NCBI GenBank assembly: GCA_021469345.1
Contig: GCA_021469345.1_3049.1
Length of the DNA: 64,000 bases
Strand: one strand, 5' to 3'
From: a phage
Shown here: positions 6,465 through 59,021 of the stretch, piece after piece
Position numbering within the stretch: the first letter of the stretch is position 1
Layout of the letters: the number at the start of each line of letters is the position of its first letter
Notes under the pieces: model-generated
The model's database searches: none
Seen by the model: only the letters and a program-made list of their open reading frames with translations
Told to the model about the DNA's origin: nothing
Made by a program: the position numbers and the translations under genes

Positions 6465-7121
6465 TTATTTAGCCCTTCCTAATATTCTGGCCGCCTGAGC
6501 ACATATTGATTCAAGGCGGTCATTACTTATATGATCATTTCTATACCAGTACATGGTTATTGTTCCAGCATAGATATTATCCAAATTGAAATATGGACAA
6601 CTGTACATGTAATTTATTTCGGGAGTAGGCTTTTTAGTTGGTAAAAAAGCAAATTTTGAGTTGGAATAATAATGACGTCCATTTAAATGAACTGTATATT
6701 CATCCATAGTTTTATCAACAGGATATCCTCCAAGTGATTTTTCACTTATTGTTGAAGGTAATTTTCCTTCGTATGCTATAATATCAACAAAATAGTTTAA
6801 GTTTTTAGGGCGGAAAGAATACACCGCACTAAAGTCTGCCTCAGATGATATATGAACTATCTGGAGTTGTTCCAGGGCGACAGATTCAAAGCGTGCAGTT
6901 CTTTCCTTTTCAATAATTTCACTGTATGTTTCATACTTTGATTGCTTATAGTACTCAAAGAAACTATCTCCCCTATACCAAACAATCGCCATTATAAACA
7001 AAAGAATTACGACAGCTACCCGGGAAGCAAGAACTTTCCCGGTAGCGTTATCTTTGAACAAGCGATCTAGAACACCAAATAGAATATCAGAGGGCGAAAA
7101 TGATATTCTAGGTGCTGCCAT
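6465..7121 (-). CDS. t: holin T
   Basis: 218 aa; N-terminal TM segment and large C-terminal domain; length equals T4 T. Confidence 0.9.
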   Translation of the reverse strand: MAAPRISFSPSDILFGVLDRLFKDNATGKVLASRVAVVILLFIMAIVWYRGDSFFEYYKQSKYETYSEIIEKERTARFESVALEQLQIVHISSEADFSAVYSFRPKNLNYFVDIIAYEGKLPSTISEKSLGGYPVDKTMDEYTVHLNGRHYYSNSKFAFLPTKKPTPEINYMYSCPYFNLDNIYAGTITMYWYRNDHISNDRLESICAQAARILGRAK

Positions 7122-7152: not shown

Positions 7153-7959
7153 TTATACTCTTGAACCGTATATTGTACCAACTTTAGTCCAAGTTGGAGC
7201 ATTACCAGTAACAGCTTTACCCGCTGCACCAGCACCACTGGTATTATAGTTTAATGTACGGACAGCAGCGCCGCCAGCAGAACCAACATTACCACCTGCA
7301 CCACTCATGTTATTACCGTCAACGGTTACTTTACCACCTGCGGCGGTTAACGATGCATTACCACCATTACCTCGACCACCTCGACCACCAGTACCGAAAG
7401 GACGTCCGCCTCCACCACCAGCAACATTACCTAATGTGAAGTTATAATCTACGGACCAACCACCGCCGCCACCGCCACCGCCAGCAATTGCACCATTATT
7501 CGTAATACGTAAGCGTGTACCAATACCATTATTAATCGCTGTACCACCAGCAGTTGCTCGAACTAAAGCATCTCCAGAACCTCCACTAGATCCAGATCCA
7601 TTACCTCCTCGGCCATAAACAGTAACGCCAGAGTTAATAATCAATGTCACATATTCATTAGTTAATGAACTAGGAAAATCTAAGCACGGAATAGTTGAAG
7701 AACTAGAAACAATATCTCCTGTTATTGTTACAACAGCAGGAGCTGTTCAAATTGATTTAAGCCAATTAATTAAAGTATCTTTATTATATGAATGATTTGA
7801 GCCAATTGAATAAGCTTTTTCAACTGACTTTCCTGCCATTGAACTCATCCAACCGGGAACTGAAACACGAACTGCTCTCATCGCAGCATCCATCCAACGT
7901 TGTCCAGTTTCATTCACGGCAGATTCGCCAATCCAGCCAGGAACACCTACAATTGCCAT
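7153..7959 (-). CDS. 38: gp38 receptor-binding adhesin (T2-type, glycine-rich), interrupted by an in-frame TGA at 7747..7749
   Basis: N-terminal MAIVGVPGWIGESAVNETGQRW... (7959..7750) and glycine-rich C-terminal part (7650..7153) are in the same frame, separated by one TGA and 33 sense codons. Confidence 0.7.
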
Positions 7960-7970
7960 TAAAAATCCTT

Positions 7971-7988
7971 AGAGGGCCGAAGCCCTCT
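7971..7988 (-). promoter_or_regulatory. GC hairpin (AGAGGGC-CGAA-GCCCTCT) between genes 37 and 38
   Basis: Perfect 7-bp stem immediately upstream of the gp38 SD (AAGGA). Confidence 0.35.
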
Positions 7989-7989
7989 T

Positions 7990-10900
7990 TTACATAAGTT
8001 TAGATTCAAGTTCTTTTACACGAGAAGAAAGTGTTTTCACAGCTTCAACTAGAAGAGCAATCTGGGCTTGAGAAGAAACAGTGAGTATTTTATTACCCTT
8101 GCTATCTTCTGTTTCACGGACAGCTTCTGGTAAAACGTCTTGTAACGTTTGAGCCACAATACCCGCTTCAGTTTCAATTGCCTCTCCACCGATGTATTCA
8201 GCTTTATCGTAAATGACACCGTTAAGTTTTTCAACTTTATCAAGTGCATTTTCGATAGGCTTAAAGTTGGATTTTAAGCGAATATCAGAACGAATATAAA
8301 CGTTTGGAGCATTTATATTTTTGTATGAGTACAAATCACCGTTTTGGAAACGGAACACTTGCACGTTGTTCGCATATATGTCTAATAATCCATCGCCATT
8401 TTGCTTAATACCAGTATCAGTATCACCAAATGTTATACTGTTTCCACCAAGTGCGTTTGTTGTGTTAACACCAAATTGATTACACTGTGTTAATCCAGAA
8501 AGTGTAGCACTATTGAATGAAACTTGGTTTTGACCACCAGGTAATTTTTGGAAGTAAGCAATATAGTTTGTTTCATCAGCAATTTCAATGCGATTACCAC
8601 GAGTGCCATCACCTGCATGGAATATACGCATGTTTCTTGGGTTCGCACCGGCTTTTGTCCAACTTATGCTTCCATTTCCAGAAATATTAATATTATTTCC
8701 AAATGTTACTTCACCTGAAGTCATATTAATTTGGAAAGGTCGTTTACTGTTCCAATCACCTTCTGTAGCCGTTGTATTTCCATCTGCTGCATTTTTATCA
8801 GTTAAAAGAATATAAAACGTAGATCCATCGTTTCTGAATAATACTGAATTTGAACCAGATTTATCTCCATTACTTGTAATGCGTAATCCAGTTTGGTTAT
8901 TAATAGCTATTTCAGATTCAGCAACAAAACGCTTTGTTTTTCCTGAATCAACTAAGTTAGTCAATACATCTGCTACCTGTCCTTTAACATTTGTTTCCGG
9001 TAATGTATCAACAGGACTTTGAGCTGAGCTAAATGCGCCAATTATTTGAACTGTTGCATTATCAACAGAACTGTAATTGAATATTAACTGATTAGCATAT
9101 GTTCCCATATTGACATAAATGTCATATGTATCGCCAGATGTATTAACCCAAGCAATATTTCTAAATGAATTTAATCCTCTTCTGTATAAAACGGCATTTA
9201 ATCCCTTAGGAGTATTATTTCCCGTACGAAGAACAATTTCAGAAATTGCGCATTGATTAAATGAACCAGAATTAAATCCATTTCCACCAGTAACTGTAAT
9301 TGAAACCGTTGATGTAGCTTGAGGCATTGTTACTGTTGCAAACTTGTACCAACCTGCAGTTTTTCCATAAGTAATAAATCCAGAATTAACTTTACGGTTT
9401 AACGTGGTATTTAAGTTGGCAAAATTACCAGAACCACCAGTGATATTACCGTCAGTACCAATACGAACCGTACCCGCACCCAATTTACCAGGAGAGTAAA
9501 AATCCCCATTACGTTTAAATTCCCAGGAAATATCTTTTATAACTGCACCTGTTGAAGAACCGTCACCACCTTCATGGTATTGTAAACGGAAATCACCACC
9601 ATTAATTAGAGTTCCTAAAGAATAACAGCTATTTCCTTGAACATAACGTTGTTTTAAAATAGGAACATACATACTAGTATCAGTTCTATCAATATTCATA
9701 TAGAACGGAGCACGGACGTCTTCATTATTCTGGGAAGCAAATGAACCTGCACCAGCCGGTCGAACAGTATTAGTACATTCAGCATCAATATAAGATGAAT
9801 GACCTATCTGCATTCTGAAATTAGGAGAAATGCGACTATTACTAGTAACAACAACAAGTTTGCTGTCATTGTCCACGGTAATCATATTTCCACCTCTGCC
9901 ATCATCGCCTAACGTGACAGAATGGCGCATTTGTACCATACCATTATTAAGAGCAATACTTAACGGGCGGAGATTACTTATTCCACCATTTTCACCAGCA
10001 TCTTTAGGAGTCGGGATAATATGTAATGCTGTTTCTGAACGACGGAAAATTGCGCCATATTCAGCATTCCAAATTCTTAATGCATCTCTTGTTCCGCCAA
10101 TTTTAACTTGGCCGGTAATAGAAGAACCACCTTGAACAAACAAACCGTTCTTCATTGTAACATTACCGTTTAAAGTGCTTAAACCATCAACTTTAAGATT
10201 TCCTGCAGTGCTAATAGAGCCGTTAGCATTAACTGGTCCATTGAACTGGGTTACAACGGGCCCAACAGTTTCAGAACCTTCTGGGCGCTGGCGTTGTGAA
10301 TAAAAATAATAACCTTGTGAATCATATACTTCAAATACAGTTTCTCTAATACCGGGAACTGAGTTAAAGGCATTACCCCATGCTTTAATTGAAACAGTAT
10401 TTTTATTCTGTCCGTTACGAGTGCCTGCATCCCAGTTAATGGTTTTGGTTCCGTCAACACCGGTAGGAGCTTTAAACGATAAAGCATTAGTATTATCATC
10501 ACCATTTAAAAACAAGCCCGTACGCATAGAAATACGCTGGGTGGAGTTAATTGTTCCGTCCGCTCTAATAGCAACGCTATTAGAACCAGTTTTAATGTCT
10601 AAAATACCTGGCTCAACAATTAAACCTTCTGCCATACCAACAGCCATACGACCCCTGCCACGGAAATAGTGGTACATTTTAGAATTGCTGTTATAACCGA
10701 TATGAGTCTGACCATCACCGTTATTATTACCATCAACATCAGTACGCGCAGTAAACATTGCTTGGTTGTTATTTGGGAAAACCCAAGTAGAACCGGAATC
10801 TTGACTATAACCAACCATCAATTTTTTAGTACTATTAATACCATTATTAATAATAGTCGCCGCAGAAATACCGTTAGCCATTAAGTCAATAACGCCAGTA

Positions 10901-11886
10901 CGAACCCATTTAAGTCCAGAAGCAGTATCGCCAAGAGCTAAATACCTATCTCCCATTACCCCGGTATTTCCATAATCGCTTGACGGGTATCCTTCAGTCA
11001 CAGTACCAATGGCCAAGCTATTGCGGATAATCATTCTACCGTCGTTACGAATACCGTATAGTTTAAATAATGGTTTATTACCAGTCCACCAAGAAACTTC
11101 ATCAGCTAGCCCAGTCTGAGCTGTACAAATTTCATGGTAAATAGTTCCACCTGATTTAGCTCGAACTTTACGAAGATAGTTTACACCATTTGTTTCACCG
11201 GTTCCAGGATAAACATAGTTAACCAAAGATTGTGAATCGTATTGTCCAAATGCTTTTGCATCAAATGAAATATTTTTAGTTATAATAGATGGACCAATCA
11301 AAGAACCTGTTCTTGTTTCAATATTATTCTGAGCGACTAAATACCCACCAGATACTAATAAATTACCAGAATCAACTTGGAAATTACCATTACGATTAAA
11401 AGTCCAATATTTCGAATCCCCAGATTCATTGATATAATGAATCTTAAAACTTCCTTCATTTACTAACGTACCAACAGAAAAAGTTCCATCTTTAAAGCGT
11501 TGTTTAATTATAGGATTATATTCAGATGCGGAAAGAGCTGAGCTTAAATCTACAAAAATTGGAGCTTTTGCAGCGTGTTGACCAGACCACGAGCCGCTTC
11601 CAATCGTACGATAATTAAACTCAATATATCCACCGCTTGCTACAATTTGCGGACCAATTAAATTAAATTTTCCAGTCTGTGTATAATCTCCGGTTTGAGT
11701 GATATTTCCACTGATATTACCGCCAGCGGAAATACTTAAATCAATGATATTTCCTGAATCATCTTTAGTAAAAATTGTTCTATCTTTTAAGTTTATAGCC
11801 AATTCACCTTCGGCTAATACTGAAGCAGCAGGACGTGCACCTGCGGTTTTGCTTCTTTTAAATTGTATTTGTTTTAAAGTAGCCAT
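7990..11886 (-). CDS. 37: long tail fibre distal subunit gp37 (1298 aa) with C-terminal chaperone-like domain
   Basis: N-terminal [13 protein letters not shown]... and central region match T4 gp37; C-terminus carries an SDIRLK motif. Confidence 0.9.
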
Positions 11887-39562: not shown

Positions 39563-39584
39563 TACACAAACAAAGGAGAATAAA

Positions 39585-39917
39585 ATGAAAACGATTAATC
39601 TGAACGCTGCAGTTAAAACTAAATGCTTCAATGGTAAATATGATGAAACTATGTGGTTCTTAATGGCAGTTGAAGGTGATATTATTGAAGTAGAAACAAC
39701 AGAAGGTATGGGAACAGATTTCACCTTTACAATTCAAGTTCATAATTTCTTTACTGGTTGGATTTATGAATTGAATACAGTAATCGTTGGAAAAATTGAA
39801 CAAAATGAATTAGGTGAATGGTATTATGTTACAGCTCGCCAACGTGCCGAACGCTTAATTGAGAAGATGAAAAAAGTTGGTAAACTTGACATGAAGCACT
39901 GGAAAGTAGTAAAATAA
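39585..39917 (+). CDS. hypothetical protein (110 aa)
   Basis: ORF track; SD AAGGAGA. Confidence 0.5.
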   Translation: MKTINLNAAVKTKCFNGKYDETMWFLMAVEGDIIEVETTEGMGTDFTFTIQVHNFFTGWIYELNTVIVGKIEQNELGEWYYVTARQRAERLIEKMKKVGKLDMKHWKVVK

Positions 39918-39955
39918 TTGTTTACTTTGGTACAGGATATGATATTATATACCTG
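39916..39955 (+). promoter_or_regulatory. T4-type early promoter (GTTTAC at 39920-39925)
   Basis: Conserved early promoter motif. Confidence 0.55.
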
Positions 39956-39972
39956 TACCGCAATTAAACATC

Positions 39973-40350
39973 TTGGAGAATAAAATGAACTACATTAACT
40001 TTGAACGTAAATATGTTTCTAATGGTATTGCAGGTTCTATTGATACTATTTGCCTTTGGAAACATCAAAATGGATCAGTATGCGAAATCGATCAGTATAT
40101 GACTCCTAATTACGTTTATATGCGATTTGAAAATGGCATCACGGTTTCAATCACAATGGAAGGTTCCAACTTTAAAATCGCTCTGGATGATGATTTTCGT
40201 CAACGCGATTTAGGGACTCATCCTTGCTGGAATGGTGCTAATCGCAAGCTTTTGGTTAAAACTTGGATTCGTCATATTCTGAGTAACAGAGCTAAACCTA
40301 AGCATCTTGAAGCAATCTTTGATGTAGTTCTTAACGAATTTGATATTTAA
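39973..40350 (+). CDS. hypothetical protein (125 aa)
   Basis: ORF track; SD GGAGAA. Confidence 0.5.
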   Translation: MENKMNYINFERKYVSNGIAGSIDTICLWKHQNGSVCEIDQYMTPNYVYMRFENGITVSITMEGSNFKIALDDDFRQRDLGTHPCWNGANRKLLVKTWIRHILSNRAKPKHLEAIFDVVLNEFDI

Positions 40351-40390
40351 AATAAATGAGGGGCTTCGGCCCCTTACTGAGGAAAATACT

Positions 40391-57900: not shown

Positions 57901-59021
57901 ATGGCTTTTACAGTTGATATAACTCCTAAAACACCAACAGGGGTTATTGATGAAACCAAGCAGTTTACTGCTACACCCAGTGGTGAAACTGGAGGTGGAA
58001 CTATTACCTATGCTTGGAGCGTAGATAATGCTCCCCAAGAAGGATCAGCAGCAACTTTTGATTATGTATTAAAAGGACCTGCCGGTCAAAAGACCATTAA
58101 AGTAGTTGCAACAAATACACTTTCTGAAGGAGGTCCGGAAACGGCTGAAGCGACAACAACTATCACAGTTCAAAACAAGACACAAACGACTACCTTAGCC
58201 GTAACTCCTGATAGTCCTGCGGCTGGAGTGATTGGAACAGCTGTTGAATTTACTGCTGCTTTAGCTTCGCAGCCATCAGGTGCATCTGCTACGTATCAGT
58301 GGTATGTAGATGATTCACAAGTTGGTGGAGAAACTAACTCTACATTTAGCTATACTCCAACTACAAGTGGAGTAAAAAGAATTAAATGCGTAGCCCAAGT
58401 AACCGCGGCTGATTATGATGCAAAGGAAGTTACTTCTAATGAAGTATCATTAACGGTTAATAAGAAGACAATGAATCCACAGGTTACATTGACTCCTCCT
58501 TCTATTAACGTTCAGCAAGATGCTTCGGCTACATTTACCGCTAATGTTACTGATGCTCGCAAATTACTTATTCATGGAAGAAAGATTCTTCTCCTGTAGA
58601 AGGGTCAACTAACGTATATACTGTCGATACCTCATCTGTTGGAAGTCAAACTATTGAAGTGACTGCCGTCGTTACTGCAGATGACTATGATAGCAAAACT
58701 ATTACAGCAGAAGGTCAAGTTCAAGTAACCGATAAAGTTGCTCCGGAACCAGAAGGTGAACTACCTTATGTTCATCCTCTTCCACATCGTACTTCAGCTT
58801 ACATCTGGTGCGGTTGGTGGGTTATGGATGAAATCCAAAAAATGACCGAAGAAGGTAAAGATTGGAAAACTGACGATCCAGATAGTAAGTACTACTTGCA
58901 TCGTTACACTCTCCAGAAGATGATGAAAGAATATCCAGAAGTTGATGTTCAAGAATCGCGTAATGGATACATCATTCATAAAACTGCTTTAGAAACTGGT
59001 ATCATCTATACCTATCCATAA
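57901..59021 (+). pseudogene. hoc: hoc (outer capsid Ig-like protein), disrupted by a frameshift near 58558-58563
   Basis: Track ORFs 57901..58599 and 58659..59021 are in different frames; together they encode a Hoc-like protein. Confidence 0.7.

Follow-up and report, generated by a model that had tools for sequence, protein, structure and literature searches.

Gene 38, which encodes a long-tail-fibre adhesin of the T2/S16 type, lies on the minus strand at 7959..7153 of the 64,000-nucleotide stretch of phage DNA that we analysed (the window), and it is interrupted at codon 71. The reading frame opens with an ATG at 7959, continues for 70 codons to an in-frame opal TGA at 7749..7747 (context ATT-TGA-ACA), and is then open to a TAA at 7155..7153, giving 268 codons plus the terminal TAA. 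Upstream on the same strand is the intact gene for gp37 (7990..11886; 1298 aa), the distal subunit of the long tail fibre, on whose tip gp38 docks; it has Peptidase_S74 and Gp34_trimer matches and is unbroken relative to phage G8. A terminator-like hairpin (7988..7971, minus strand) lies between the two genes, at a site homologous to one at which G8 annotates a terminator, and the AAGGA Shine-Dalgarno sequence of gene 38 comes after this hairpin, ahead of the ATG. The downstream neighbour is holin t (6465..7121, minus strand; 218 aa), an intact frame in the ORF list, which fixes the gene order as 37-38-t. The same order of gp37, gp38 and holin t is found in phages FJ1, G8, Lutter, IsaacDaniel and SH-2.

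When the stop is bridged, the resulting 268-aa sequence matches Pfam family Gp38_N (PF21721) over residues 1–42 (E = 8.5e-18) and family GP38 (PF05268) over residues 47–268 (E = 1.8e-65), the second match spanning the break. It also aligns over residues 8–266 with the solved gp38 of Salmonella phage S16 (6F45_D; E = 5.9e-43). Tryptophans W9, W22 and W37 are all present in the window protein, and W9 and W22 are invariant across 39 homologues. Because the frame stays free of stops for 197 more codons in A+T-rich DNA, and because the homology extends over the full length, a single broken gene is established beyond chance: 7959..7153 is one gene 38 with one in-frame stop. An earlier reading of this DNA, made from the sequence only, had proposed that the N-terminal 70 codons of a T2-type gp38 end at this TGA and that the two listed ORFs are one adhesin gene with a single stop. 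The sequence and Pfam agree with the first proposal, and the Pfam match and 6F45_D alignment that cross the break confirm the second. That reading had also considered that gp38 might naturally be encoded as two proteins with this same boundary; we found no such case, and intact single-ORF genes are the rule.

Predicted content of the 70-residue product

The N-terminal attachment domain of gp38 consists of three helices, each presenting a conserved tryptophan to gp37; beyond this docking domain come a linker of six residues, a beta-helix domain capped by helix alpha4, and the receptor-binding loops of a polyglycine-II sandwich (PMC12032242, PMC6851490). In order to place codon 71 within this architecture, we used an AlphaFold2 model of an intact homologue that is 97% identical to the window protein (P0002; mean pLDDT 86.5). 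The model has helices at residues 13–29 and 38–41, a hairpin at 48–58, a helix at 60–69, a turn, and the first beta-helix strand at 75–79, and codon 71 falls in the turn between helix 60–69 and strand 75–79.

Codons 1–70 (7959..7750) would thus encode the gp37-attachment domain with its tryptophans at 9, 22 and 37, the linker, the beta-hairpin at 48–58 and capping helix alpha4 at 60–69. The sense codons immediately past the stop (7746..7651; TAPAVVTITGDIVSSSSTIPCLDFPSSLTNEY), which number 32 and not 33 as counted in the sequence-only reading, correspond in the translation and the model to the first rungs of the beta-helix. They are followed by a 165-aa ORF that starts from a GTG (7650..7153) and that, by its alignment with 6F45_D, covers the remaining beta-helix and the glycine-rich polyglycine-II sandwich with its hypervariable receptor-binding loops. 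With codon 71 in the post-helix turn, the 70-aa product is predicted to keep the whole gp37-docking module together with the capping helix, and to be without the beta-helix and the receptor-binding polyglycine sandwich, that is, without all of the parts devoted to host recognition.

Codon 71 in related phages

The closest records in the phage collection, FJ1, G8, Lutter and IsaacDaniel, are 94–97% identical to the window in the nucleotide sequence of gene 38, and all are intact. These are the four cultured relatives of the subtype, and every one of them has GGA at the position homologous to codon 71; the more distant SH-2 has GGT. Over the first ~460 nt of the gene, the window is the same as FJ1 save for the one base at 7749. 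Since all four relatives have GGA and the sequence is otherwise that of FJ1, the lesion is a single G-to-T substitution at 7749, which puts a T in place of the first G of the codon and converts Gly71 to opal. The alignment check suggested from the sequence had anticipated a sense codon one substitution away from TGA, either TGG or GGA; the codon proved to be GGA, and among the options put forward at that time the relatives, including SH-2 with its GGT, support an opal nonsense allele. Glycine occupies column 71 in 38 of 39 diverse family members and is also present in S16 gp38. Substitutions with this consequence are a small part of those available, as only 94 of the 2412 possible single substitutions in gene 38 create a stop.

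A 61-nt probe centred on the T matched only these phages in the phage collection (6 records), with exactly one mismatch in each, and no record in that collection carries the T allele at 7749. Complete E. coli genomes gave no match. In JGI metagenomes neither the T-allele nor the G-allele 29-mer was present, a result that is uninformative on allele frequency, and in IMG/VR the sole representative of the subtype is G8.

Independent assemblies carrying the T

Exact look-up of the 70-aa product identified two further assemblies with the allele, L007 and L008. The first, a Logan assembly of sequencing run SRR17583572, matches the window with 100% identity across 3530 nt, the T included; it is evidently, to judge from this identity, the same phage put together by another pipeline. 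The second is a contig from an ENA metagenome (ERZ24909961; 2285 nt, coverage 2.6x) that has the same TGA at the same codon, with an intact frame beyond it, and that is only 92% identical to the window overall. Within gp38, 41 of 807 nt separate this contig from the window (the codon differences being 32 synonymous and 6 non-synonymous), which is as large a distance as that between any two intact alleles of the cluster, such as the 39 nt between FJ1 and G8. Their gp37 ends are 90% identical, and their closest cultured relatives differ: the metagenome contig is nearest to Sf24/PinkRuby, the window to FJ1. Neither carrier has a further lesion downstream of the stop, and neither has a near-identical cultured relative.

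A tract of 155 nt around the T is identical in all relatives, and it therefore cannot separate shared ancestry from recurrence of the T or date the allele. The metagenome contig could be a low-coverage chimera whose T came from another strain, similar to the window, in that sample, and the apparent two backgrounds could be one lineage seen twice. Whether by ancestry, recurrence or chimera, a second data set, unrelated to the first, has the allele. So few of the substitutions possible in the gene make a stop that chance is a very unlikely source of the same base change, be it through error or through an unrelated dead-end mutation.

Source of the genome and a second lesion

In the public record, the 70-aa ORF is HBN1578388.1, "TPA: hypothetical protein L1W13_001480 [Escherichia coli]", on a contig of 167,936 bp, and a first protein search with the fragment returned a single candidate. 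The downstream part is HBN1578387.1, a PGAP call of 190 aa that begins at an ATA at 7725. Thus, two public "hypothetical proteins" are one interrupted gp38. Neither the downstream 165-aa ORFs nor the truncated Hoc described below had an exact match on record. The locus-tag number, near 1480, implies that more than a thousand genes precede this one in the assembly, from which we infer that a complete T4-like (Tequatrovirus) genome was assembled together with that of an E. coli isolate. Many other gp38 proteins in the database likewise bear the names of bacteria and come from contigs of 60–430 kb, one of them labelled Bacillus cereus; such co-assembly is therefore common, and phage contigs are often filed under the name of a host or contaminant.

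To look for other damage, we ran tblastn with all G8 ORFs of >=70 aa against the window. Among annotated genes, gp38 and hoc alone are broken relative to G8, the remaining flagged ORFs being antisense to, or out of frame with, annotated G8 genes. The gene for the head outer capsid protein, hoc (57901..59021, plus strand), has lost 10 nt between 58556 and 58557 by comparison with G8; the resulting frameshift leaves a 232-aa N-terminal ORF (57901..58599) and a 120-aa remainder (58659..59021) that is out of frame. When a 321-nt hoc query was searched, the top records listed span 331 nt and so have the 10 nt that the window lacks, and identity in full-coverage matches did not exceed 93.4%; by these comparisons, the deletion appears private to the window genome. 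The genome is otherwise clean, and both lesions are in proteins of the virion surface. Separately, a gap between tblastn segments at about 39579..40379 of the window marks ~800 bp that are not in G8, beside the homologue of G8_00211; an additional or mobile ORF may account for them.

Other natural gene 38 lesions

Gene 38 is also found broken in other subtypes. In a T2/T6-like subtype, a 1-nt deletion at codon 61 (GGT CAA TGG to GGT CAT GG...) produces a 74-aa ORF (P0016) whose TAG overlaps the GTG that opens a 185-aa ORF. This allele was read on 12 contigs, with 6 samples listed; its loci, L009–L014, come from Logan assemblies SRR8960615, SRR8960497 and SRR11126505 and from ENA assemblies ERZ28576877, ERZ28578217 and ERZ27232763 (for example, L009, 2501–3282). 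Loci L009–L012 are identical over the gene, L013 has the same 74-aa ORF on a variant background, and L014 comprises the 74-aa ORF only. In an SH-2/slur07-like gp38, a 1-nt insertion at codon 57–58 yields ORFs of 58 aa and 210 aa; it is present at L022 (1047–1833 of scaffold_8, 167,918 bp, in ENA ERZ28619516) and at L023 (Logan ERR2241733), and is not in the five closest records of the phage collection. Neither this insertion nor the codon-61 deletion is carried by any record in that collection. A third lesion, at L027 (420–1260; Logan SRR26419622_1497), shifts the frame close to codon 36, within helix three of the docking domain. These occurrences suggest that crippled adhesin alleles are visible mainly where phages are sequenced without plaque purification. 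We do not claim a hotspot for breaks after the docking module, because the survey favours N-terminal breaks: these leave a long C-terminal piece that scores well and is detected.

Two other kinds of variation were observed among gp38 genes. At L026 (601–1771; Logan SRR28381592_48, 71.9 kb), two tandem genes have a common Gp38_N docking domain, the first being gp38, probably from a non-ATG start, and the second a 167-aa ORF whose C-terminus is unrelated; the pair may encode two adhesins. In addition, four gp38 variants of 167–212 aa (P0085, P0100, P0103 and P0110) have in-frame internal deletions between glycine-rich motifs, consistent with recombination between glycine-rich repeats that shortens the receptor-binding sandwich.

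Decoding of the interrupted frame

UGA is an ordinary terminator in the window, as 15 of the 58 long ORFs end in TGA. In 5 of these 15 the TGA is followed by A, so that the leaky-context feature of the gene 38 stop is weak. No tRNA was found within the 64-kb window, and a search of the coding strand against Rfam families, including selenocysteine elements, gave nothing near threshold. A stimulatory RNA structure downstream of the UGA was not significant when compared with shuffled sequence (z = -0.8), and this stretch of RNA is identical in the relatives that have GGA; it therefore did not evolve for bypass of the stop. The in-frame starts past the stop (ATA at codon 79, ATT at 83 and 90, GTG at 104 and TTG at 106) include none with a properly spaced Shine-Dalgarno sequence. 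The first canonical start among them, the GTG at codon 104, is 33 codons downstream and inside the beta-helix.

These results allowed several forms of recoding to be rejected. An alternative genetic code with UGA as a sense codon is incompatible with the use of TGA to end 15 of the 58 long ORFs, and the window has no tRNA; selenocysteine recoding has no SECIS or Rfam match near threshold and no significant fold. Frameshifting by +1 or -1 at AUU-UGA would be unproductive, as the downstream part of gp38 is in the zero frame. Programmed read-through of the kind that produces Qbeta A1 would require a conserved stop, and all five aligned relatives have GGA or GGT. Of the leaky or programmed UGA read-through that had been offered as one possibility, the programmed half is therefore not supported by the sequence, given a stop absent from cultured relatives and no recoding signal; an unprogrammed leak remains plausible.

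Discussion

The gp38 adhesin sets the host range of most T-even phages, many of which have been put forward for use in therapy and diagnostics. Opal mutants are classically leaky, and RF2 is weak where codon 246 of the host prfB encodes Thr. How often UGA is read through in E. coli depends on how Trp-tRNA competes with RF2 (PMC10570021). The context of the gene 38 stop, AUU-UGA-ACA, has UGA-AC in common with that of the leaky stop of the Qbeta coat gene, UAC-UGA-ACU, whose record annotates ~5% read-through, and by this analogy a small percentage of full-length gp38 with Trp71 is plausible.

We favour, with moderate confidence, the explanation that the window carries a GGA-to-UGA nonsense allele yielding a 70-aa fragment together with rare, leaky, full-length G71W protein, in a phage that would be strongly attenuated (hypomorphic). 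Most ribosomes would stop at codon 71 and release the 70-residue docking fragment without the receptor-binding parts. Full-length adhesin would arise only through unprogrammed, near-cognate read-through, where Trp-tRNA competes with RF2 at UGA-A, and the yield would be a small amount of G71W gp38. The phage would be strongly attenuated for adsorption through its long tail fibres rather than normally infective, and selection would presumably tolerate or favour this attenuation for as long as phage and host persist together. We infer both that read-through reaches a useful level and that the G71W protein folds. A T2 phage deleted for g38 forms plaques only when gp38 is supplied in trans (PMC12892980). 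Because gp38 is needed for T2 plaques and the allele occurs in two data sets, a carrier probably keeps some function or receives help, and the lack of any cultured isolate with the allele fits poor or no plaque formation. Three considerations argue against a useful leak: tryptophan may not be tolerated at a glycine as conserved as Gly71, the abundant 70-aa fragment could out-compete the rare full-length protein for gp37 tips, and an A after the stop is no distinctive feature, given the ordinary TGA terminators of the window that have it as well. In a T-even phage that travels with its host, the allele is best seen as a natural opal mutation by which production of the adhesin is strongly reduced and perhaps abolished.

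Possible, but clearly less probable, is a null allele in a defective genome. Here no useful read-through would occur, and the allele would be a dead end, seen while transient, while complemented by co-infecting wild type, or within a carrier culture. The conservation of Gly71 speaks against a functional G71W protein and so for a null, as do the essential role of gp38 in T2 plaque formation, the absence of the allele from cultured isolates of the subtype, and the second private lesion, in hoc, in the same genome. The other inactivating gp38 lesions, the frameshifts at codons ~36, 57 and 61, are likewise known only from culture-independent data. Against a null, an unrelated data set shows the same substitution in a fibre module of different appearance; with so small a share of substitutions making a stop, two independent dead-end events at the same one are unlikely. 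In addition, the reads of the isolate gave T as the consensus base in each of two different assemblies. As a null allele should not spread alone and this one has been seen twice, the evidence tilts, though not strongly, towards a severe hypomorph over a pure null.

A more elaborate possibility, which we regard as doubtful, is a circulating, selected device for attenuation. A trickle of adhesin would be made through the leaky UGA, or by a suppressor derived from tRNA-Gly (UCC to UCA), while free fragment caps most fibres and a carrier state is maintained; the breaks at codons ~36–61 in other subtypes would be cruder versions of the same device. A simpler selective reading is a shade more doubtful still. 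It holds that a leaky UGA is favoured for its own sake, since less adhesin would mean slower adsorption and let a virulent phage coexist with its host, and that free fragment might cap fibres. Several observations are in keeping with it: the phage was co-assembled with an E. coli isolate, the allele is in two data sets, the stop context is of a leaky type, a second surface protein (Hoc) is also damaged, and the natural gp38 breaks all fall after or within the docking module. However, no clade of relatives has conserved the allele, the survey that yielded the other breaks is biased to N-terminal lesions, and the hairpin downstream of the stop is not significant and is identical in GGA relatives. 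We searched the literature on disrupted gp38 alleles and on T4-like carrier states in E. coli and found nothing directly relevant.

Efficient decoding of the UGA by a suppressor tRNA, supplied by the host or from elsewhere in the phage genome and restoring glycine if it were a Gly(UCC to UCA) variant, is highly improbable. The tRNA cluster of the window's phage would be outside the 64 kb, and phage G8 has eight T4-type tRNAs, four of which, Gly(UCC), Arg(UCU), Ser(UGA) and Leu(UAA), are each one anticodon change from UCA. Yet the window itself contains no tRNA, the long ORFs that end in TGA would all be exposed to read-through, and no natural suppressor is annotated in G8, the relative that we examined; a Gly(UCA) suppressor, which would restore the wild-type protein exactly, is unlikely.

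We give even less credence to a two-piece adhesin, in which the downstream part would be made separately, by internal initiation or re-initiation, and would join the 70-aa fragment. PGAP and ORF callers do produce the downstream ORF, and the frameshifted allele of a different subtype has a GTG that overlaps the stop of its first ORF; however, the candidate starts past the gene 38 stop have no usable Shine-Dalgarno sequence, and a piece that has no docking domain is unable to bind gp37 through the known interface. Finally, a base-call or assembly error with G as the true base, another option of the sequence-only reading, might be suspected from a single-base difference between the window and otherwise near-identical relatives, but it is very unlikely, as the T is in the NCBI third-party assembly, in the Logan assembly of the same run and in an unrelated, 8%-divergent metagenome assembly, and the sole other broken gene in 64 kb, hoc, has a 10-nt deletion that is not of an error type.

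The leaky nonsense allele that we favour has consequences beyond this phage. Consensus genomes obtained without plaque purification can carry crippled receptor-binding genes, and uncritical prediction of host range from them is unsafe. The allele also offers a concrete and cheap test case for whether reduced adsorption helps a virulent phage and its host to coexist.

Comparison with known systems places the allele among familiar ones. Like T2/S16-type gp38 (PF21721 and PF05268; 6F45), the window gene has the docking domain with its tryptophans, the beta-helix and the polyglycine-II sandwich with its glycine-rich motifs, and the position between gp37 and holin t. In contrast to the uninterrupted polypeptide of ~250–270 residues that typifies this group, it has a UGA at the conserved Gly71, and its default product would be the docking module and capping helix; it is a member by descent that, as written, encodes 70 residues. 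Relative to the other natural gp38 alleles, the break is similarly placed, within or just after the docking module, but those alleles are frameshifts that read-through could not rescue, and the window allele is the only stop-codon substitution seen.

The leaky UGA of the Qbeta coat gene, which gives rise to A1, is similar in that the UGA is followed by AC, that Trp-tRNA competes there with RF2, and that the host-interacting portion of a virion protein would be in the extension. In Qbeta, however, the stop is fixed and required and both products are functional, whereas the stop in the window is missing from cultured relatives and takes the place of a conserved glycine within a folded domain. 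Further parallels are the classical amber and opal mutants of T-even tail fibres and the side-tail-fibre frameshift of laboratory lambda, in which a point lesion likewise removes or reduces a receptor-binding component of the fibre. Unlike the classical nonsense mutants, the window allele comes from the reads of a bacterial isolate and from a metagenome and, as far as can be told, was neither made nor selected in a laboratory. It is thus a new instance of a familiar kind of event, which gains slightly in interest from its reappearance in an unrelated sample, from the hoc lesion that accompanies it, and from a testable link to the coexistence of phage and host.
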